Virus record (IMG/VR): IMGVR_UViG_3300045988_147970
Strand: one strand, 5' to 3'
Origin: a virus
Lineage: Duplodnaviria; Heunggongvirae; Uroviricota; Caudoviricetes
DNA: 38,666 bases
Shown: piece after piece, positions 13,778 through 38,666 of the stretch
Numbering within the stretch: the stretch's first letter is position 1
Layout: each line of letters begins with the position of its first letter
The notes under the pieces: generated by a model
Told to the model about the DNA's origin: nothing
Databases searched by the model: none
Seen by the model: only the letters and a program-made list of their open reading frames with translations
Made by a program: the position numbers and the translations under genes

Positions 13778-13978
13778 TTAATGCTCGCGTCGTCCGGCGA
13801 CAACTTCGGATTTGTATTTCAGGTCGCCCAGCAAGAATTGCAGTTTAAGCATCTTTGCCGCCGTGTAGTTTCCTGATTCCACAACCTCTTTCATGAGGTC
13901 ATAAACGGCCGCAACATCATCAGCCAGGAACTCTTTGCGTTGCTGCTCAGTCGCACGTTTGAAGGAAATACGCATCAC
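13778..13978 (-). CDS. hypothetical protein
   Basis: 66-aa ORF; its start overlaps the upstream stop. Confidence 0.3.
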   Translation of the reverse strand: MMRISFKRATEQQRKEFLADDVAAVYDLMKEVVESGNYTAAKMLKLQFLLGDLKYKSEVVAGRREH

Positions 13979-14244
13979 TCATCATCTCCTGCCGCACATA
14001 CAACCTCACAAAAAACATCAGCGGAATGTTTCTTTTTGAATGAATGGCGCTCAAAACCGCACTCAATATCAGGCGCAAAAACATCCACCACATACGGTCT
14101 TTCAGAATGTTTGTTTTCCCAACGATAAACCGTAGTGACGTTGAAATGTTTTAACGCTTCACGGTACTCAACGCTGCCCGTCAGGTTTTTTGAGGTCAGG
14201 TATTGCAGGAGGTTTTTTACTACTTCACGGTCTTGTACTTTCAT
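13975..14244 (-). CDS. hypothetical protein, first gene after a duplicated operator-bearing promoter module
   Basis: 89-aa ORF; GGAG RBS; preceded by the ~104-bp module that is duplicated upstream of the DUF3560-like gene. Confidence 0.35.
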   Translation of the reverse strand: MKVQDREVVKNLLQYLTSKNLTGSVEYREALKHFNVTTVYRWENKHSERPYVVDVFAPDIECGFERHSFKKKHSADVFCEVVCAAGDDE

Positions 14245-14251
14245 CGGGTTA

Positions 14252-14355
14252 TCTCCGGTTTAACCAGGGCGGGTATCGCTCGGTTTCGGGTATAATCATA
14301 GGAAATTTTTTCCCACCTGCAAAGCACTTTTTATATAAATATATAATTATATAAT
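14252..14355. repeat. ~104-bp duplicated promoter-leader module, copy A (copy B at 21832..21935)
   Basis: ~93% identical to 21832..21935; each copy sits directly upstream of a minus-strand gene start and carries the AGGAAA-N3-TTTCC operator-like motif and AT-rich TATATAA repeats. Confidence 0.6.
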
Positions 14356-15252: not shown

Positions 15253-15328
15253 TGGTGGCCCCTACCGGATTTGAACCGATGACCGTGCGATTATGAGTCG
15301 CCTGCTCTAACCACTGAGCTAAGGGGCC
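15253..15328 (-). tRNA. tRNA with anticodon CAU, ileX-like (tRNA-Ile2 or Met); 3-prime CCA encoded
   Basis: Reverse complement GGCCCCTTAGCTCAGTGGTTAGAGCAGGCGACTCATAATCGCACGGTCATCGGTTCAAATCCGGTAGGGGCCACCA folds as a cloverleaf; the first ~42 nt match my recollection of E. coli ileX. Confidence 0.85.
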
Positions 15329-15497
15329 ATATTTGATCTGTTTGTCTGGTGTGGCGCCGCGCACGAAAATCCCAGCCAATAAATTCAGGATTTTTGGGCG
15401 CGGCGGCATATCAGACAAACATGGTTGATGCGTGCGCCCATGAGAAAAGCGCATAGAATGTTGTAACTATATATTTATATAATTATAGAAATATATA

Positions 15498-20036: not shown

Positions 20037-20402
20037 TCACTTCAACTCCTCCCGACGACGTTCCTGAAGCTCTAGCATTGCGGCTCGGAAATCCTGCCAC
20101 CATTCCTCATCTGCAACGGGGGTGTTTCGCTCCAGCACCTTGTCCGCATCAGCGATCAGGTTTGCCAGACTCTTGTCTGAAATCTTCGTTACCGGAGTCG
20201 TTGGTTGCTCAACCTGCCCGATAGGTTTTATCGTGCTCAAAAGGAGGCGACGGCTGGAAAGTGGCGACCCACAACGGCGCCCATCTTCCTTGCGATATGT
20301 TTCTTTCGGACCAACACACCAGGTTGTCGGCGTTTCGCGTAACTTCACTTTTTTCTCACCATCAATGGTGATGATTATTCCGGTATGGGTTTTGATGCTC
20401 AT
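20037..20402 (-). CDS. hypothetical protein
   Basis: 121-aa ORF in the operon. Confidence 0.3.
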   Translation of the reverse strand: MSIKTHTGIIITIDGEKKVKLRETPTTWCVGPKETYRKEDGRRCGSPLSSRRLLLSTIKPIGQVEQPTTPVTKISDKSLANLIADADKVLERNTPVADEEWWQDFRAAMLELQERRREELK

Positions 20403-20680
20403 GCCACAGCCCCTCTCAACGGCTTAACTTTGGCTAATAAGGTGTTAAACAACATGGAGTTAGGATTCATGCCAAATGGCAATTCCGGTTTAGCGGAGTA
20501 GTACAGGCAACCATTTATTTTCCTGGTTGTTATCTGTCCTTCGGCAACCATGCTTCTCAGTCTGCAACGCATAGAGTTCTGCGACACACCAATGTGCTCC
20601 GCGATTACGTCCACTTTTGAACATGGGTGATCGGTCAGGAAATTAATCACATCTTGGGGGTTAATAATTTTGCGTTTCAT
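20399..20680 (-). CDS. small putative winged-helix DNA-binding protein
   Basis: 93 aa; VDVIAEHIGVSQNSMRCRLRSMVAEGQI resembles a wHTH recognition region; AT-rich promoter-like sequence upstream. Confidence 0.3.
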   Translation of the reverse strand: MKRKIINPQDVINFLTDHPCSKVDVIAEHIGVSQNSMRCRLRSMVAEGQITTRKINGCLYYSAKPELPFGMNPNSMLFNTLLAKVKPLRGAVA

Positions 20681-20757
20681 TGTCGAGGCGTCCTTATAAA
20701 TTTATATAAATATATAATTCTATATAAGGCGGGAGACATCCCGCCGTAGGCTTACTG

Positions 20758-21825
20758 TCAGGCTTTCAATAGCGATTCTTTCAGATATCGGGCATCAGCC
20801 AGGGCGTTTGGAGTAATCTTGCGAACCCATGCATTACGGGTTGGACTCCACTTAAAGGCGCGTGATTTAAGCAGCGAACGAATGTTTGCCTCTGGTTTGC
20901 CTGGGAAATAAAACAGGATGCGGTTATCCTCTGGATCTATCTCCATAGAAAAGCCGTCGTATTCTTCGCGCTGTGCTCCTGTTACAGACTTGACCGATTC
21001 AAGCTCCTTAATACGGCTCTGTAGTCGTTTGATTTCGGCGTTATTGTTGCTCAGTGCGTATGAAGGGAATCCGATGTGCCCACAGAAATCTCCGGCCAGT
21101 AACTCTTTGGCTTCGCTTTCTGTAAACCTGAGATCGATTAATGCAGAAAGCTGCTGTAATTGGTCTTTTTTGTATTTGCGAATGGCCTTATTTGCGGCCT
21201 TCATTTTGACGTGTGACTTCATGCAGCCTTGCAGCTTACGAAGCAACTTAAATAGCGCATCAGGATCATCAGACGAAATTCCATTACGACCAACACCTGC
21301 GGCTTTGCTCTCGTAGTGTGATGCTTTACTTTCGCATTCAACAAACGCTTTTCTTAATAACGCATCAGCTTTAGACAAACGGCGGCGATGGCCTTTCGCG
21401 CTATAATGGTCAACTAAAATCGGCTGGCCTAACGGGATCACATCCAACAGGTCATGCGCTCGCTTATGCGCTACCGCACCTTCTTTTCTGGCTTTTTCTG
21501 CACGAGCAATATATCGGGCAAGACGCGCGTTCTGGCGTTCCTGATAGGTGTTTACGTAATCATCTCCGCGCTGCTGCTGTTCAAGCCATGCTTTGCGCAG
21601 ATCTTCTGTTACGTCCACCAGCTCCGCAGGGATACAACCAGTTTGGGCTTCATAAGAGTAACCATCCTCATAGATACGCCCATCATCTTCAACAAAGAAA
21701 AAGGTTTCGTGCTCATCGCTTTTGACCATACGACCATTAACATGGCGTAATAGGTAGCCAGTATCAGTGCTTAACAAGCTGTTAGGGTTGTTGATCCAGT
21801 CAGAAATAATTACTTGTTTATTCAT
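20758..21825 (-). CDS. DUF3560-like protein with N-terminal extension
   Basis: Start at MNKQVII (residue 51 of the track ORF) with GGAG RBS; motifs GQPILVDHYSAKGHRRR, SSDDPDALFKL, KAANKAI, DFCGHIGFPSYALSNNNAEIKR, FKWS match my recollection of DUF3560. Confidence 0.5.
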   Translation of the reverse strand: MNKQVIISDWINNPNSLLSTDTGYLLRHVNGRMVKSDEHETFFFVEDDGRIYEDGYSYEAQTGCIPAELVDVTEDLRKAWLEQQQRGDDYVNTYQERQNARLARYIARAEKARKEGAVAHKRAHDLLDVIPLGQPILVDHYSAKGHRRRLSKADALLRKAFVECESKASHYESKAAGVGRNGISSDDPDALFKLLRKLQGCMKSHVKMKAANKAIRKYKKDQLQQLSALIDLRFTESEAKELLAGDFCGHIGFPSYALSNNNAEIKRLQSRIKELESVKSVTGAQREEYDGFSMEIDPEDNRILFYFPGKPEANIRSLLKSRAFKWSPTRNAWVRKITPNALADARYLKESLLKA

Positions 21826-21831
21826 CAGATT

Positions 21832-21935
21832 TCTCCGGTTTAACCAGGGCGGGTATCGCTCGGTTTCGGGTATAACCTTAGGAAATTTTTTCCCACCCGT
21901 AAAGCACTTTTTATATAAATCTATAATTATATAAA
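21832..21935. repeat. ~104-bp duplicated promoter-leader module, copy B
   Basis: See copy A; upstream of the DUF3560-like gene start at 21825. Confidence 0.6.
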
Positions 21936-22018
21936 TAATAGTGACTGGTGCTTTTTTAGGCTGCACATTAAACATTTTTGTTTAGCTTATTGGCAAGGTC
22001 TTGAAAAAGACATTTCAG

Positions 22019-22034
22019 CAATGGTATACCATTG
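22019..22034. promoter_or_regulatory. 16-bp perfect palindrome CAATGGTATACCATTG, operator-like
   Basis: Lies ~60 bp upstream of the plus-strand regulator start in the divergent intergenic region; overlaps a -35-like TTGAAC. Confidence 0.5.
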
Positions 22035-22091
22035 AACATGGTATCGGCTGAATTTTACAATTAACACATTTTAAACAATTGGAGGTGCCAA

Positions 22092-22376
22092 ATGGCTAAA
22101 CCAAAATCTGAAATTGATGCTATTCGAGCATTAACAGAAGTAACAATTAAAGGTTTTGAGCAGGTTGCTCAGGCATTAGTTGATATGAGAGAAGCTCAGG
22201 GAAAAGTCGCACGAGCAACATATAATGGATTAACCTCCTCAGGAAAATCTCGCTATGTTGCATCGCTAGTAGAGGAAGTAGGATCACAAGCTGAAGTAAG
22301 CCGCATGTTAAATATCACACCTGGGCGCGTTAGCCAGCTTATGAAGTCCGAAAAAAACCGCAAAAATGGTAAGTAA
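22092..22376 (+). CDS. putative DNA-binding regulator; the only convincing plus-strand gene
   Basis: 94 aa; GGAGGTG RBS 5 nt upstream; C-terminal HTH-like SQAEVSRMLNITPGRVSQLMK; 16-bp perfect palindrome in its promoter region. Confidence 0.45.
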   Translation: MAKPKSEIDAIRALTEVTIKGFEQVAQALVDMREAQGKVARATYNGLTSSGKSRYVASLVEEVGSQAEVSRMLNITPGRVSQLMKSEKNRKNGK

Positions 22377-22380
22377 ATAA

Positions 22381-22403
22381 GTAAGGCCCCAATGGGGCCT
22401 TAC
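22381..22403. terminator. bidirectional rho-independent terminator between convergent genes
   Basis: Near-perfect hairpin GTAAGGCCCC-AAT-GGGGCCTTAC flanked by A/T-rich sequence on both sides. Confidence 0.6.
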
Positions 22404-22409
22404 ATTATG

Positions 22410-22709
22410 TTAGACATGGAACGCTACTCGCTTTCCTGTAGGAAGCTCAACATCCAGGCTTAATTTGCCTCCCATAGCTTCAACGTAACGCTTTAATGTC
22501 GCCAGCTTTAAATCATTTCCGCGCTGCTCCAGCTTTGTTACTGCTGGCTGGCTTATACCCATCGCCTCAGCAACCTGTTTTTGTGATAACTGGAGTTCTT
22601 CACGCATCATCTGCAAGCCGACCTCAAGAATCATCTCATCTGCCATTTCTTTAATTCGCGCCTGGCTTTCAGGTGAACGGCTGGCAATCACCTCATCTAA
22701 TGTTCTCAT
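22410..22709 (-). CDS. HTH XRE-family antitoxin (HigA-like)
   Basis: 99 aa; HTH QKQVAEAMGISQPAVTKLEQ; start overlaps the toxin stop by 1 nt (ATGA). Confidence 0.65.
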   Translation of the reverse strand: MRTLDEVIASRSPESQARIKEMADEMILEVGLQMMREELQLSQKQVAEAMGISQPAVTKLEQRGNDLKLATLKRYVEAMGGKLSLDVELPTGKRVAFHV

Positions 22710-23056
22710 TACTTGCTCTCCAGTGTGTTCAGATGTGCTGCAAACTCATCCTCAGCTATACGCACCAGTTTTTTATAAAACCGCTTATCGTTACTTTTGT
22801 CTCCTGCACAAAGAACGATGGCCCGACGAATCGGATCGAACGCATAAAAGGCTCTTATCGGACGGCCAGAAAACTGAACGCGAAGCTCTTTCATATTTTT
22901 GTACCGAGAACCTTTTACGGTATCGGCATATGGCCTGGGTAACTCAGGTCCGTAAACCTGTAGATTTTTCAAATCAGCCAAAACCTTTTCCTGAAGAGCC
23001 TCTTCTTGCTCATTTAGCCAGTCGTCAAATCGCTGGCTAAAAAGTACCGTCCACAT
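22709..23056 (-). CDS. RelE/HigB-superfamily toxin, phage Gp49-like
   Basis: Start at MWTV with AGGA RBS; ADTVKGSRYKNMKELRV...AFYAFDPIRRAIVLCAGDK...KRFYKKLVRIAEDEF matches the Gp49-like toxin pattern. Confidence 0.65.
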   Translation of the reverse strand: MWTVLFSQRFDDWLNEQEEALQEKVLADLKNLQVYGPELPRPYADTVKGSRYKNMKELRVQFSGRPIRAFYAFDPIRRAIVLCAGDKSNDKRFYKKLVRIAEDEFAAHLNTLESK

Positions 23057-23300: not shown

Positions 23301-23591
23301 CTATTTTTGTGACTTTACTCCTGGCATATGGACTTCCCAGCGACGAATCCCCATAGCTGCGCAAAAATCAGCCACATAATTCAATCCCGCCCATTCGCGG
23401 ATACCACCACGGGCTTTTTCAATGAAAACGGCAATCCCTTTTTTATTGAGAGCAAAAAGCCGCCAGCTTTTTGTCACTTCGTCCTGGGTAGCCACAACAC
23501 AAGTGAAAGCTCCCATGCGATACAGGTCCAAGAACTCTTTGCGTGTTTTGCGTACAAGTTCCATAACAAACCTCATATTTGCATGTTTCAA
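23301..23591 (-). CDS. hypothetical protein
   Basis: 96-aa ORF whose start overlaps the stop of the upstream HTH gene. Confidence 0.3.
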   Translation of the reverse strand: MKHANMRFVMELVRKTRKEFLDLYRMGAFTCVVATQDEVTKSWRLFALNKKGIAVFIEKARGGIREWAGLNYVADFCAAMGIRRWEVHMPGVKSQK

Positions 23592-23887
23592 ACATCTGTT
23601 TTGTTATCAATGAAGATTAACCCTAACCCAGCGAAGTAACACAGCAGCGCCCAGGCTGCATACGGAATGCTGGATCTGGATGTGGACTCCTTTAACATCT
23701 GCCAGTTGCGAACATTGCGACTATCTTTTAAGCCTAGTTTTTTGGCTAACTGCGAGCCGCTCATTCCGGTCAGGCCAATGACTGCCCGAACTTCTCCACA
23801 TGTAGGAGATTCCCATTCATCCGCTTTTTTTAAACAAGCCGGATTCAACATTTTTAAAACAGTATCTTTATCCATAACCATCTCCAT
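23588..23887 (-). CDS. XRE-like HTH protein with C-terminal hydrophobic segment
   Basis: HTH-like GMSGSQLAKKLGLKDSRNVRNWQ; C-terminal IPYAAWALLCYFAGLGLIFI; palindrome AGGAAA-N3-TTTCCT just upstream of the start. Confidence 0.4.
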   Translation of the reverse strand: MEMVMDKDTVLKMLNPACLKKADEWESPTCGEVRAVIGLTGMSGSQLAKKLGLKDSRNVRNWQMLKESTSRSSIPYAAWALLCYFAGLGLIFIDNKTDV

Positions 23888-23906
23888 TTATTATATCTAC
23901 GATGGT

Positions 23907-23921
23907 AGGAAATCTTTTCCT
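23907..23921. promoter_or_regulatory. operator-like perfect inverted repeat AGGAAA-TCT-TTTCCT
   Basis: Perfect 6-bp inverted repeat with 3-bp spacer ~20 bp upstream of the HTH gene start; near-identical copies at 14300..14314 and 21880..21894. Confidence 0.5.
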
Positions 23922-24368
23922 ATGTGGCAATAGAAATTTACTACATTGCGTATAAGACAAGTTTTCTATGTCTAATAGGAAATGATGTTTCTTACATTTT
24001 ATCGCGTTCTGATGGCTACTGTGTGCGTATTTATCGACGTTTATTGATAAGGCTCGCCCCTTCCTCCTGCAAAGCCCGGCCGTAGGCCTTATTTCGGCCT
24101 TATATAAATTGATTTTGTATAGTTCGAAACGTGCCGTTTCGAAAAGGATGATCAGGCTGCTCCATGCCTCCGGCAAGTGCCGGAGGAGGTATATTTGAGC
24201 GTAGCGACTCGAACCGGCGCGAGCTTTAGCTCGCTGCAAGGGCGAACATATTCACAGGCAAAGCCTGTGTAAGTTAAATAAAGAAAGTCTTAATAAAAGA
24301 AAGTGATTTTGCATTTATTTGTTTAGTGCATCTATTATAAAAAACCATTTGCATATACATATCAGAAC

Positions 24369-33581: not shown

Positions 33582-36366
33582 AACTTAATCTCCGTTGTTG
33601 GAACATATGAGCACTCAATTTCTTCTCAAAATCAGAATATCCCGCATCTAATGCTCTTTTAGCTGCCGCCTCAGTTTCCTTTGGTGAACCAGCCGGAAGA
33701 TTGATTACAGGTGAATAGGTTATTCCACCAGTCACAGCGTTAACGTTCTGGCGAGGTCCAGAAGTCCCAGCGGCAGATATCCCGTGAGGTGATAAATTTG
33801 ATTGCCCGAACTTGCTTGCTATTGCATTCTGTAAGCTGTTATTCCTGCTAACACCTGATGCCAGAGTAGTCATTATTGCACCACCTGACTTTGTTAGCTG
33901 TGAGAATGGACCTTTTTTCGCGTCAGAGAACGGTAAATACTCACGTACAGAAGAAAAAACGCCTTTCACTTCATTAATTAAAGCATTTGCTTTTGATTTT
34001 ATCCCAGTGATTAACGTCTCAATTATTTTTGCGCCTGACTCACTCCAGTTTATTCCAGATAAATAAGTCGTTACAGATTGGAATGCTCTTATAAAGAGTC
34101 CAACTGGTGAAAAACGCATAAAAACAGATACCAGTGTATCTATGATTTTCTTTCCTGTTTCGCTCCAGTTAATGCCAGAAAGGTAATTTGTTGTAATTTT
34201 AAATGCTTTAATTAAGAACGGAAGCGGAGACATCCATTTAAAAGCACTAATTAATGTACTGTAAATTCTTACTCCTGCCGAACTCCAGTTTATGTTGGAA
34301 AGATAATCCCATGCTTTACCAAACATAGATATAATCCATCCATTGAGGTCAAAGTTTAAGATAAAGTTTTTTATAGCCTCAAATGATTTAACTGTATATT
34401 CCTTAACAGAAGGCCAAACTCTGACAGCATAATCTCTGATCTTATCCCAATTCTGATAGAGCAATATTCCTGCGGCAACCAGCGCAGATATAGCCATCTG
34501 AATCCACCCGAAGGGTGTTAGCTTTGTCGCTACAGATAAAGCCAGCATAGCTACCCTACACGCTATAACCACACTTTTCATGGTTAGAAACGCACCTGCC
34601 GCCATCACTATCTGAGACACAAAATTGGGGTTGTTAGCTACAAATTCACTAATTTTTGTAATCAGCGGAACCAAAACACTAAGCGCGGCATTCAAAGCAG
34701 GTTGCAAGGCCTGACCAAAACTTAATGATGCATTGCTAGCCTGAATACGTAATTGTTTCAATCGCTCCGCATTATCTTTCGTTATGTTGGCAAAATCGCG
34801 GTCAATAACAGCACTTCCAGCTCCAAGAGATGTTGCTTTGATTCTCTGGTATTCCTTCCAGTTTTGAATCATCGGACGAACAAAGTTCTGAACCTGCATA
34901 TCGCCAAATAGTTCACCAAGTAACTTCTGATCTCCGTTCTTAGTCATTTTCATGACAGAATGCATTGCAGCTTCGAATGGATTCTTCCCTTTTTTCTGCG
35001 CTGTTGTAACAATTTTATATAAATCTACACCGAAATTTTTCTTTGCTTTTTTTAGTGTTTCAGGGGAAAGTATTTTTGCCAAAAAGTTGTTCATATTATT
35101 AGCAGCCTCATCCGAAGTTGCAGCCCCCTTGCGAGCTATCTGCAAAGCTGCACCCATCGTCGCGGCTGCTTCTTTACCTCCCATTTTTAATGCCTGGAAC
35201 TGAGCACCAAGCACAGGAAGATTTTTGGCCATATCTTTAAATTCAAAGTTCCCCTCTTTCCCTGCCTGAACCAGAATCCCCATTGCAGACTTCATTTGAG
35301 ATGGATCAATCTTCAATGAGTCACTTAATGTAAATGATGCTTTCGAGACATCGAGGATATCAGAGCCAGTAGCTGTAGCTGTTCGCCCAATAGTTAGTAG
35401 ATTCGCCTGAGCCTCTTTATAATCCTGCCCAGCAGCGACGAGAAAACCCTGAGCGGCCTGAATATCAGATGCAAACTGGTTGGTAGCCGTTCCGGTAACA
35501 AGCATCGCCTGCCCCATCGCCTGAACTTCTTCCGGCTTCATATCTGCCGTAAGACCAATCATTTTGTTTTCACGATTGAAATTTGCTGCATTGTTAGCAG
35601 CAGCAAATGCACCAGCCGCTACAGCACCAGTTTGTAATCCTGACCTTACAAGTTGACTCTTTGCCTCACCAAGATGCTCTCGCTTCAATTCACGCTGCCT
35701 TTCCAACGCGCGGTTTAACTCCTCCTGAGCACGTTTTACTGCAAGAACATTTTTCCGTGCTTCAGCCAACGCATTTTTATAGCTGTTAATTTTATCAATA
35801 CGTTGTTTTTCTAATGCCCGGTTAAGTTCCTCCTGCTGTTTTTTCACTTGCTGAACATTTGCTCTGGCTAAAGCCAAAGCCGTTCTGTAGCGGTTAACCT
35901 GCTCAACGCTACGGGCCTGAGCCTCACGATTACGATCAATGCTGGCTTTAAGCTCTTTCTCTCTTGAGGCCAAAGCTCTGGCAGATGTATCAGCTCCCTG
36001 ATAGGCAGACTTTAAAGCGGCCAGTTCTTCACGCTGAGAACGTAGTGATGCTCGTAAATTTGATGAATGTGTTTTTGCCTTCTCAAAGTCACGAAGCATC
36101 GCTCTGGTTGGATTGGCCGTGTTTTTTATTTGCTTCTGTAACTCTTCAACGCGAGCGGCAGCTTTATGATATTCGAGGGCAGTCTGTCCAACCTTTACTT
36201 TTACAGATTGTAGCTTTTGAATTTCCCCATGTTCTTTCGTTAACCCAGCAAGCTCTGCATTTAATTTAGCAACAGCCTGATTAGCTGTAGTAAAACTTTT
36301 GGGGAGAGAGGCGGCAACTTTGCCGCCAATTTCAAAAGCCAGCTTAAAGTTCTTATTGCTGGCCAT
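33574..36366 (-). CDS. tail tape measure protein
   Basis: 930 aa, extensive coiled-coil N-terminal half, downstream of the frameshifted chaperone pair. Confidence 0.85.
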   Translation of the reverse strand: MASNKNFKLAFEIGGKVAASLPKSFTTANQAVAKLNAELAGLTKEHGEIQKLQSVKVKVGQTALEYHKAAARVEELQKQIKNTANPTRAMLRDFEKAKTHSSNLRASLRSQREELAALKSAYQGADTSARALASREKELKASIDRNREAQARSVEQVNRYRTALALARANVQQVKKQQEELNRALEKQRIDKINSYKNALAEARKNVLAVKRAQEELNRALERQRELKREHLGEAKSQLVRSGLQTGAVAAGAFAAANNAANFNRENKMIGLTADMKPEEVQAMGQAMLVTGTATNQFASDIQAAQGFLVAAGQDYKEAQANLLTIGRTATATGSDILDVSKASFTLSDSLKIDPSQMKSAMGILVQAGKEGNFEFKDMAKNLPVLGAQFQALKMGGKEAAATMGAALQIARKGAATSDEAANNMNNFLAKILSPETLKKAKKNFGVDLYKIVTTAQKKGKNPFEAAMHSVMKMTKNGDQKLLGELFGDMQVQNFVRPMIQNWKEYQRIKATSLGAGSAVIDRDFANITKDNAERLKQLRIQASNASLSFGQALQPALNAALSVLVPLITKISEFVANNPNFVSQIVMAAGAFLTMKSVVIACRVAMLALSVATKLTPFGWIQMAISALVAAGILLYQNWDKIRDYAVRVWPSVKEYTVKSFEAIKNFILNFDLNGWIISMFGKAWDYLSNINWSSAGVRIYSTLISAFKWMSPLPFLIKAFKITTNYLSGINWSETGKKIIDTLVSVFMRFSPVGLFIRAFQSVTTYLSGINWSESGAKIIETLITGIKSKANALINEVKGVFSSVREYLPFSDAKKGPFSQLTKSGGAIMTTLASGVSRNNSLQNAIASKFGQSNLSPHGISAAGTSGPRQNVNAVTGGITYSPVINLPAGSPKETEAAAKRALDAGYSDFEKKLSAHMFQQRRLSFG

Positions 36367-37349: not shown

Positions 37350-38666
37350 TTATTCAGAAAACAAGTTCAGCAGATAATCAGGATTATATTCCATGACGAA
37401 CTCTATATCTCTGGCAGGTGAGAATGGTGTCATTTTTACATGGAATTTAACAATCCCGTCCATCAATGACGTAATCGTGTTTTCAGACTGATCAAAGGTA
37501 ACAACACCACCTGCAATATCCTGATTACCAGTGAGGCCGTTAAGCCAAATATTCGCACTAGTAACAATCGATTCAATTAATCGACGGTTTGCAGGATTGT
37601 CTATTTTTGACCAATGCGAAAGAATTAACGTATTACCCACCCAGTTAAACATACGTCGGCAAACACGAAATGCGTCTTTGGGGTCTGTAGATGTTGGATA
37701 AATAGCATTACGGTTTCCCCATGATTTCCAACCATCAAAATTAAGGCTTGTTACAATCCCCTGTCCATTTAAGTAGTTTGCCTGGCTAATGTTAAGCCAT
37801 ACCTCACTGCCATCTTTACGTACAGCACCGTCCATCTGTAGTTTTATATTTGACGGAGAACGTGATGGAATATCATCATACTGACTATCCAGCAAGCATG
37901 TTGCTGCAGCTAAATGGGTTGAGTGATGGTAAATATTGTCACCAAGTTTCACCATCGGCCAGCACACTGTCTGGTTAGCTGCCATATGATTATTGTTCTG
38001 CTTCCATTCAGGAACAGCAGAATAATCACTGATAGTAGATTTATCAGTCGGCGCATCGGTGATAGCTTCTGCTTTGAACAATTCACTAATCAGCGCAGCT
38101 TTAGCCGCCATTAGCTGGCCAACTTCACTATCAGAACTAAATCCAGGCGCAATCACTTGTCCAGGAACCAACTTGAAGCGGGGATACACATCAGACAGTA
38201 ACTCAAGCCCTGTATTGGCTTTAGTGTTGGAATCCACACCACCGATAATGTCATTTTTAGTTACGGCACCGGGATCAAGATGCGTATAACTAACCTTAAG
38301 AGTAGCGTCTTTTTCGGTAATTTTTCCTCCGCTAATAGCGGTAATGACCGTATAGCCATTATCATCCAGCGCCAGCACATAATCGGTGTCAACCGTTAAT
38401 CCTGCCGAATCACCATCTGCTTTTTTCACAACAACAGATTTATATAAGACACCATCGTTAGAGAGCGTACCTTTCCCGCCAGAAAGTTTTACTACCTCAT
38501 CAGGTACGTCTTTCTTATGCTTTGCTGGATCAAGCACATTAATAAATACAACTGGCGCAACACCATATATTCCAAATGCGACTTTAATTACTTCGCTTAA
38601 AGTATATTTCTCGAAGTTTGTGCTATATCCTATTTTAGATACGGCCTCTGCGTATGTATAAGCAAT
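37350..38666 (-). CDS. tail sheath protein, 3-prime major portion (reading frame open to the window end)
   Basis: Track ORF 37350..38537 plus 43 in-frame codons to 38666; the first 18 of these are the 54-bp repeat also at 31..84, linking to the N-terminal fragment at 4..231; immediately upstream of the tube gene. Confidence 0.8.
   Translation of the reverse strand: MAYTYAEAVSKIGYSTNFEKYTLSEVIKVAFGIYGVAPVVFINVLDPAKHKKDVPDEVVKLSGGKGTLSNDGVLYKSVVVKKADGDSAGLTVDTDYVLALDDNGYTVITAISGGKITEKDATLKVSYTHLDPGAVTKNDIIGGVDSNTKANTGLELLSDVYPRFKLVPGQVIAPGFSSDSEVGQLMAAKAALISELFKAEAITDAPTDKSTISDYSAVPEWKQNNNHMAANQTVCWPMVKLGDNIYHHSTHLAAATCLLDSQYDDIPSRSPSNIKLQMDGAVRKDGSEVWLNISQANYLNGQGIVTSLNFDGWKSWGNRNAIYPTSTDPKDAFRVCRRMFNWVGNTLILSHWSKIDNPANRRLIESIVTSANIWLNGLTGNQDIAGGVVTFDQSENTITSLMDGIVKFHVKMTPFSPARDIEFVMEYNPDYLLNLFSE
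38613..38666. repeat. 54-bp exact direct repeat, copy 2 (ends exactly at the window end)
   Basis: See copy 1 at 31..84. Confidence 0.85.

Follow-up and report, generated by a model that had tools for sequence, protein, structure and literature searches.

Why would a tailed phage carry almost the same non-coding sequence in front of two unrelated genes? This question is posed by the IMG/VR virus record IMGVR_UViG_3300045988_147970, a stretch of 38,666 nucleotides that was analyzed as a whole and is referred to here as the window. A repeat search of the window finds a direct repeat of 103 nt, ungapped and 95% identical, between positions 14252-14354 and 21832-21934, with both copies on the minus strand; the terminal overlap of the window aside, it finds no second repeat of similar length. 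An initial annotation had described the two segments at these coordinates as a duplicated promoter-leader module driving different operons, with an identity (~93%) slightly below that measured. In a pairwise alignment the similarity extends to both downstream ATGs once a 1-nt indel is allowed, and a GGAG lies 8-9 nt 5′ of the ATG in both copies. The open reading frames that begin there, both on the minus strand, encode 89 aa (13975-14244; phrog_6143) and 355 aa (20758-21825), the latter with a Pfam match to DUF3560 and a primase-like PHROG match. Since the two proteins have no mutual blastp match at E<=10, the description of the segments as ending at the GGAG and start codon of unrelated genes is borne out. 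The operator-like palindrome and TATATAA repeats that the copies were said to share are likewise well above expectation: TAGGAAA-N3-TTTCCTA occurs exactly three times in the window with <=2 mismatches (0.15 expected), and TTATATAA-W8-TTATATAA, also with <=2 mismatches, three times (0.00 expected). Two points need amending. The AT-rich array is present in both copies but is a separable element that is found at further promoters too, and although the window holds two copies of the module, its relatives normally have three, copy B of the window being a hybrid of two of them.

The repeated segments are probably promoter/operator/leader cassettes of a phage-plasmid, controlled as parts of a KorC-type regulon. 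This assignment is made because of the position of the shared palindrome, the presence of a KorC homologue and the colinearity of the segments with the klcA/kleA cassettes of the IncP-1 plasmid R772. On the minus strand, the cassette consists, in order, of an array of 8-bp units, AAAAAGTGC, a -35-like hexamer, a 17-bp spacer, a -10-like hexamer, a variable stretch of 7-8 nt, and a leader. The array is made up of three to four units (TTATATAA / TTATAGAT). The promoter consensus of the family is TTTACA-N17-TATGGT, the -10-like hexamer being generally TAWGGT, and the spacer is occupied by a 17-bp palindrome, T(A/G)GGAAA-N3-TTTCCTA, whose final TA forms the first two bases of the -10. Cassettes of the Salmonella, Citrobacter, and Enterobacter lineages carry the perfect palindrome TAGGAAAATATTTCCTA. 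The leader, ~45 nt long and almost invariant, runs from GAAACCGAGCGATA to CGCCCTGGTTAAACCGGAGA (GAAACCGAGCGATA..CGCCCTGGTTAAACCGGAGA) up to the ATG.

Copy A, which corresponds to copy 3 of the family, spans 14245-14354, beginning with the TATA array and ending immediately 5′ of the start codon of the 89-aa gene. Its array of three units (TTATATAA TTATATAT TTATATAA, 14331-14354) abuts the -35 region on the upstream side and is followed by the -35-like TTTGCA (14318-14323), the 17-bp KorC-type palindrome TGGGAAAAAATTTCCTA (14299-14315), and the -10-like TATGAT (14295-14300). Transcription would start near 14287, which is also where the leader begins (14245-14287); it reads GAAACCGAGCGATACCCGCCCTGGTTAAACC, after which come GGAG, at 14253-14256, and the spacer that leads to the ATG. 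A consensus promoter scan passes copy A (TTTGCA-17-TATGAT). Copy B (21826-21934), in front of the DUF3560 gene, combines an upstream part of family copy 1 with a downstream part of family copy 2. It is composed of the array TTATATAA TTATAGAT TTATATAA (21911-21934), the -35-like TTTACG, which is the copy-1 allele (21898-21903), the same KorC-type palindrome TGGGAAAAAATTTCCTA (21879-21895), the -10-like TAAGGT (21875-21880), and a leader (21826-21867) with GGAG at 21833-21836 and the copy-2-type spacer AAATCTG. All of these elements lie on the minus strand.

The significance of this arrangement becomes clearer when the element itself is identified. The window, circular-looking and ~38.58 kb long, is a member of a family of ~47-49-kb phage-plasmids of Escherichia and Salmonella and, as judged from annotated relatives, encodes terminase, portal, capsid, contractile tail, and lysis genes together with an IncFII-type RepA and a toxin-antitoxin pair. 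Of 5426 complete E. coli genomes, 74 have the cassette, nearly always on plasmids of ~48 kb and in three copies at the median; it is present as well in 65 PLSDB plasmids, Salmonella and Klebsiella aerogenes among their hosts. It is also carried by three isolated Yersinia pestis phages, in each of which three places match the copy-B query. Comparison with related elements, a check that the initial annotation had suggested, shows the cassette to be kept in front of fixed genes: in the full-length relatives examined it always heads the same three, with copy 1 preceding a 126-aa gene and a 90-aa helix-turn-helix gene, copy 2 the DUF3560 gene, and copy 3 the 89-aa gene. The window has three sites of the palindromic operator, and full-length relatives have four; every site is in promoter position upstream of a gene. 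A scan of species-representative genomes for DUF3560 returned distant matches in Clostridia only, and a literature search on the phage-plasmid family, its regulation, or the Yersinia phages found nothing relevant. In two relatives (L060, 276-1151, and L062, 1-1151), a beta-lactamase gene is inserted in the 90-aa helix-turn-helix gene just downstream of copy 1, leaving a 43-aa remnant of that gene; L062 also has an adjacent DDE transposase.

Between the E. coli and Salmonella lineages, the genomes are 65-80% identical overall and the cassettes 87-90%, while the genes and flanks that adjoin the cassettes reach just 34-74%. The non-coding cassette is thus the best-conserved stretch compared, which argues for a function. 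Within one genome the copies are more alike still (93-99% identical, vs 85-88% between lineages). Lineage-specific substitutions are common to all three copies of a genome, and the alleles of the spacer between GGAG and ATG form a mosaic among the copies, copy 3 of the phage-plasmid in the reference strain ATCC 25922, for example, having the copy-2 allele. Taken together, the shared substitutions and mosaic spacers indicate that the copies exchange sequence and evolve in concert.

A candidate for the regulator is encoded about 2 kb from copy B. The gene at 23588-23875, on the minus strand, encodes a 95-aa helix-turn-helix repressor of the KorC family. Over 80 aa, it shares 51% of its residues with the protein annotated as 'transcriptional repressor KorC' in R772 (pairwise E 1.8e-21), and its identity to the protein encoded in the place of korC, in the order klcA-klcB-korC, on another IncP-1 plasmid is 52%. 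Its own putative promoter, TTGCCA-N17-TACCAT (23902-23930, minus strand), was independently picked by the consensus scan and carries a perfect palindrome, TAGGAAAAGATTTCCTA (23906-23922), with the same position and spacing relative to the promoter as in the cassettes. In the Salmonella, Citrobacter, and Enterobacter relatives the intergenic region of this gene has diverged save for a block, TTGC-N-TAGGAAA-N3-TTTCCTACCATC. Since the promoter of the korC-like gene bears the same operator, the repressor would limit its own synthesis. An uncharacterized 87-aa gene follows the korC-like gene.

The 95-aa protein is also similar, in sequence and in fold, to the helix-turn-helix repressors of anti-CRISPR systems. 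Its sequence matches the helix-turn-helix domain of AcrIF24 (E 1.4e-5) and Aca3 (E 0.016), and the folds nearest to its AlphaFold model (predicted local distance difference test score 83.6) are the C-terminal domain of AcrIF24, Aca1, and Aca2; several of the PDB structures among the matched entries are Aca proteins bound to palindromic DNA. Aca systems differ in having the operator at one acr promoter, whereas that of the phage-plasmid stands at several distant promoters, and no anti-CRISPR gene was recognized beside the korC-like gene. Another repressor of the family, CI-like and of the XRE type, was considered as the cassette regulator and rejected, its likely operators, ACCAC-N5-GTGGT, being absent from the cassette. 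In the ATCC 25922 plasmid (L003), these repeats lie around the CI-like XRE gene and at two further sites (23322-23494, ~22600, and ~19480), and the whole of this region is absent from the window.

The closest parallel to the cassettes is found on conjugative plasmids. The IncP-1 promoters klcAp, kleAp, and kleCp likewise form several near-identical promoter-operator-leader cassettes in front of different operons of one replicon. In R772, klcAp and kleAp are near-identical cassettes with TAGG(G/A)CATTTTGCCCTA overlapping the -10; the kleA version reads GTTTAGCTAAAGTGCTTGACAGGC[TAGGGCATTTTGCCCTA]ATATAGCAC...CCGGAGAAAGTCCGATG, where the bracketed 17-bp palindrome overlaps the -10. With the form of the KorC operator taken from the R772 and L048 sequences, the overlap of the operator with the -10 is arranged in the same way in klcAp and kleAp of R772 and klcAp of L048. 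The phage-plasmid cassette is colinear with klcA and kleA of R772 from AAAGTGCTT, at the -35, to the ATG, with local alignment scores of 26-32 (z 5-8), where shuffled sequences give a mean of 14.7, with an sd of 2.2 and a maximum of 27. An even closer match is the klcA leader from a second IncP-1 plasmid, in which GAGACCGAGC...AAACCGGAGAAAGACCGATG corresponds to GAAACCGAGC...AAACCGGAGATAACCCGATG in the phage-plasmid. In both kinds of element, a 17-bp TAGG-N9-CCTA palindrome sits in the spacer and its final TA begins the -10, the leader runs to CCGGAGA...CCGATG, a second element abuts the -35, and a repressor of the KorC family is encoded on the same replicon. This colinearity, together with the -35/17-bp/-10 layout of each copy, favors the promoter-leader character that had been attributed to the segments; their co-regulation through the shared palindrome is made plausible by the KorC-like form and position of that palindrome and by the KorC homologue, with an operator of its own, 2 kb away.

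The two systems are not the same in every respect. The inner half-sites of the operator are GAAA/TTTC in the phage-plasmid and GGCA/TGCC in IncP-1, and where IncP-1 has the KorA operator GTTTAGCTAAAC beside the -35, the phage-plasmid has the TTATATAA array. The korC-like gene of the phage-plasmid has its own operator-bearing promoter instead of lying within the klcA operon as in IncP-1, and no phage-plasmid protein is significantly similar to KlcA, KlcB, KleA, or KleE. The host replicons differ as well, one being a tailed phage-plasmid with an IncFII-type RepA and the other a conjugative IncP-1 plasmid. A single small KorC repressor over several modules of a mobile element is also known from the IncU plasmid RA3, in which KorC is the main global regulator and coordinates the promoters of different functional modules; korCp of RA3 is weak and constitutive, whereas the operator in the promoter of the phage-plasmid korC-like gene implies autoregulation (PMC7414963).

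What is known of the IncP-1 genes suggests how the cassettes might work. The klcA and kleA promoters are cited, in the reference lists of papers on these plasmids, as experimentally studied and repressed by KorA and KorC. KorC is counted among the global, autogenously controlled repressors of IncP-1 (PMC11997246), and klcA is strongly repressed by KorA and KorC together; when RP4 enters a new cell, klcA is induced ~120- to 220-fold and the kle genes 20- to 50-fold (PMC7314908). By analogy, each copy of the phage-plasmid cassette would be a complete cassette for transcription and translation initiation, and the protein that binds its operator would most likely be the KorC-family repressor from the gene at 23588-23875. 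This would keep expression of the operons behind the cassettes (two in the window and three in the full-length family) low once the element is established. With the repressor holding the cassettes down, the operons would be expressed together whenever it is absent or diluted, and entry into a repressor-free cell may cause them to fire together, as the IncP-1 klcA and kle genes do.

Several observations weigh against this interpretation. The hexamers of copy B (TTTACG/TAAGGT) agree with the consensus at 7 of 12 positions, and copy B fails a simple promoter scan. The cassette operators of E. coli are one mismatch off perfect symmetry (TGGG vs TAGG). In the Enterobacter lineage, the copy-1 position holds a TATA array without the operator-promoter, and lineages thus differ in which genes are wired to the system. 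The IncP-1 analogy is incomplete, since GTTTAGCTAAAC was not seen in the cassette and the proteins of the family include no KorA homologue, the best match (E 0.77) covering 17 residues of a generic helix-turn-helix. The 94-aa protein encoded at 22092-22376 was considered as a KorA analogue and rejected, as its similarity is limited to 17 residues of a generic helix-turn-helix and its gene is missing from ATCC 25922 and from Salmonella relatives that retain the arrays. Finally, the leader hairpins fold with z of -0.8 to -2.1, not clearly better than shuffles, and RNAalifold gives them a covariation term of -0.1, with double changes in 2 of 11 pairs.

The last of these observations bears equally on the idea that the function of the conserved part lies chiefly in the RNA, as a structured leader (a stabilizing or RBS-occluding hairpin, or a site for antitermination or a riboregulator), and is repeated for that reason. 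No part of the cassette is better conserved between lineages than the leader, in which 2-3 of 36 nt have changed, and in both the phage-plasmid and IncP-1 the leader can fold a hairpin at its 5′ end and another, small one that takes in part of the GGAG. With folding energies near those of shuffles, almost no covariation, a tRNA as the sole match in an Rfam search of the window, and no complementary RNA partner of the leader found in the genome, an explanation mainly in terms of RNA is distinctly unlikely. The cassettes might instead be positively controlled middle or late phage promoters, with an activator bound to the TATA array and the palindrome either incidental or a secondary brake. The array lies at about -40 to -65, a position typical of activators and UP elements, the tRNA, the MarR-like gene, and parA each have an array without a palindrome in front of them, the -10 hexamers are mediocre, and two of the three cassettes point in the long rightward direction of phage gene transcription. 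Such a role for the array is nevertheless unlikely to account for the cassettes, because the palindrome is kept in position and sequence across lineages and recurs, free of any array, at the korC-like gene, while the homologous IncP-1 cassettes are repressed rather than activated and no activator candidate was identified. Highly similar promoters before non-homologous genes of one genome have also been described as putative mobile promoters (PMC3488235, PMC3575422), and the repeat could by this precedent be a selfish or neutral mobile sequence, of the type of a miniature inverted-repeat transposable element or a 'mobile promoter', with no regulatory role. This is very improbable: terminal inverted repeats and target duplications are lacking, copy number and positions are fixed across diverged lineages, the cassettes are conserved far above the neighboring genes, and the gene of the cognate repressor has the same operator. 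Instead of signs of ongoing mobility, the cassettes show fixed positions, a dedicated repressor, and copies kept alike by gene conversion and selection. A KorC-type regulon therefore remains the preferred explanation of the repeat as it occurs across the family.

Within the window, copy B raises a further problem, as it joins sequences that are separate elsewhere. In each of the 100 E. coli records that match it, a 2-kb query over copy B falls into two parts, 21000-21933 on the DUF3560 side and 21822-23000 on the copy-1 side, which overlap only within the repeat. The window lacks 8,701 bp that extend from copy 1 to copy 2 in pSCU-204-5, the closest plasmid, and is otherwise colinear with it; the sizes agree (47,295 - 8,701 = 38,594, vs 38,582 observed). 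The upstream flank and TTTACG of copy B are of the copy-1 type and its GGAGA-AATCTG-ATG end is of the copy-2 type, which places the joint between ~21833 and 21897. Copy B is thus chimeric, part family copy 1 and part family copy 2. The copy-1-type flank at 21935-22091, which is shared with the divergent 94-aa gene, adjoins the operon of the 126-aa hypothetical and helix-turn-helix genes in all relatives and never DUF3560. The absent block contains that operon, antirepressor genes, ParA and its 82-aa partner, the CI-like XRE repressor, and an early operon with Ref and DUF1064. The 94-aa gene itself (22092-22376, plus strand, divergent from copy B, with a weak C-terminal helix-turn-helix) is extremely common, occurring in 2398 index blocks of public assemblies, and is absent in ATCC 25922 and the Salmonella relatives.

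The loss of the 8.7 kb may reflect either a repeat-mediated deletion or a misassembly. In the latter case, a short-read assembler would have crossed the collapsed repeat from the copy-1 to the copy-2 flank and skipped the 8.7 kb between them. The ends of the window give some reason to consider this, since positions 31-84 equal positions 38613-38666, a 54-nt overlap of the kind seen in de Bruijn assembly, and nucleotides 1-30 match no relative, the 72 matching E. coli records (72/72) aligning only from nucleotide 31; the unmatched first nucleotides and repeated ends make the contig ends look like an artefact of short-read assembly. Many short-read contigs in public databases end within the repeat. 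None of 100 E. coli records contains the junction. A pattern that bridges the joint has its match in the window and none in IMG/VR or the JGI metagenomes, and the contigs listed with an identical DUF3560 protein or an identical 94-aa neighbor have the normal arrangement only. On the other hand, the assembly of this very contig passes through copy A, which is the same repeat, in the normal arrangement, and the resulting circle is coherent and of a size that fits exactly one inter-repeat loss. Copies also demonstrably exchange sequence in finished genomes, and complete deletion derivatives of 32 and 39 kb exist in the family, although these are not repeat-mediated. The 32-kb pCREC-544_3 had been considered, on account of its matching size, as a recombinant of copies 1 and 3 and was rejected, its annotation showing a different deletion, and that of the 39-kb pGF31-D is unrelated to the repeat. 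On balance, the chances that the copy B arrangement is an assembly artefact are put at somewhat below even. The initial annotation had also proposed that the copies could promote recombination, and this finds support in the chimeric copy B and in the mosaic alleles of complete genomes.

Apart from the operator, the cassettes share the TATA array, and this element has a distribution of its own. Stand-alone arrays are found on the minus strand at 20702-20725, upstream of a 93-aa MarR-like gene (20399-20680), and at 15468-15497, ~140 nt upstream of a tRNA (15253-15328), and in full-length relatives two arrays flank the parA promoter. Since arrays occur without an operator-promoter, they are separable from it. 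Their place in the cassette, which is that of the IncP-1 KorA operator, suggests that they are probably a second regulatory input; the candidate identities are a second operator, an UP-like element, and an array related to partition. In the ATCC 25922 plasmid, the region 21096-22191 encodes a small ParA (217 aa) and, downstream, an 82-aa protein, neither of which has its gene in the window. The parA promoter there, TTTTCA-N17-TATGCT, lies between arrays whose units equal those of the cassettes. This layout looks like a type Ib partition locus, and the arrays that flank parA resemble the centromere/operator arrays of type Ib systems. The 82-aa protein is a candidate for the binder of the arrays. 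Its assignment as a ribbon-helix-helix protein found no support, as it has no Pfam or PDB sequence match, its model (a disordered N-terminal half followed by two helices) is of low confidence, and the fold search was uninformative. Repeated operators of global repressors include the C1 operators of P1, the omega heptad arrays of pSM19035, and the ParG boxes of TP228. In these systems, too, short repeated units are placed at several promoters of one element.

It is tempting to combine these observations into one scheme, in which cassettes and arrays together make a global circuit with two inputs, taken over from the kil-kor system of conjugative plasmids. One input would be the KorC-like repressor, and the second a partition-linked or other array binder. 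Such a circuit would synchronize a burst of establishment-gene expression on entry into a naive cell, and the repeats would excise the CI-antirepressor-ParA block to give repressor-less derivatives of 38.6 kb. Taken as a whole, this scheme is speculative and rather unlikely to be right. The system may be described as a phage-plasmid version of the known KorC regulon with repeated promoter cassettes, in which the upstream element and the cargo genes are different; as far as we could find, KorC-type cassette regulation of this phage-plasmid family has not been described previously. The control of the phage-plasmid is linked to the classical KorC regulon of conjugative plasmids with a broad host range down to the sequence of promoter and leader, which suggests that whole regulatory cassettes have been exchanged between plasmids and phages. 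The family is common, the reference strain E. coli ATCC 25922 harbors a member of 48,488 bp with all three cassettes, and some relatives have a beta-lactamase gene beside copy 1. The proposed circuit, in which a single small repressor would act on four operators and regulate three operons together, is a testable one. The triplicated repeat of ~110 bp is of practical importance as well, since it breaks or misleads short-read assemblies of these elements, and it may drive real deletions of the lysogeny and partition block.

Some smaller features of the window may be added. The tRNA at 15253-15328 is on the minus strand and has a CAU anticodon; ARAGORN assigns it to Met, and the RefSeq annotation of relatives to Ile. 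In the interval from the stop codon of DUF3560 to the 93-aa MarR-like gene (20681-20757, minus strand), a hairpin, GGCGGGATGTCTCCCGCC, is immediately followed by the stand-alone TATA array, and the two may constitute a terminator plus an internal regulatory site. The tape-measure gene contains three 42-nt repeats at a spacing of 120 nt (34025-34306).

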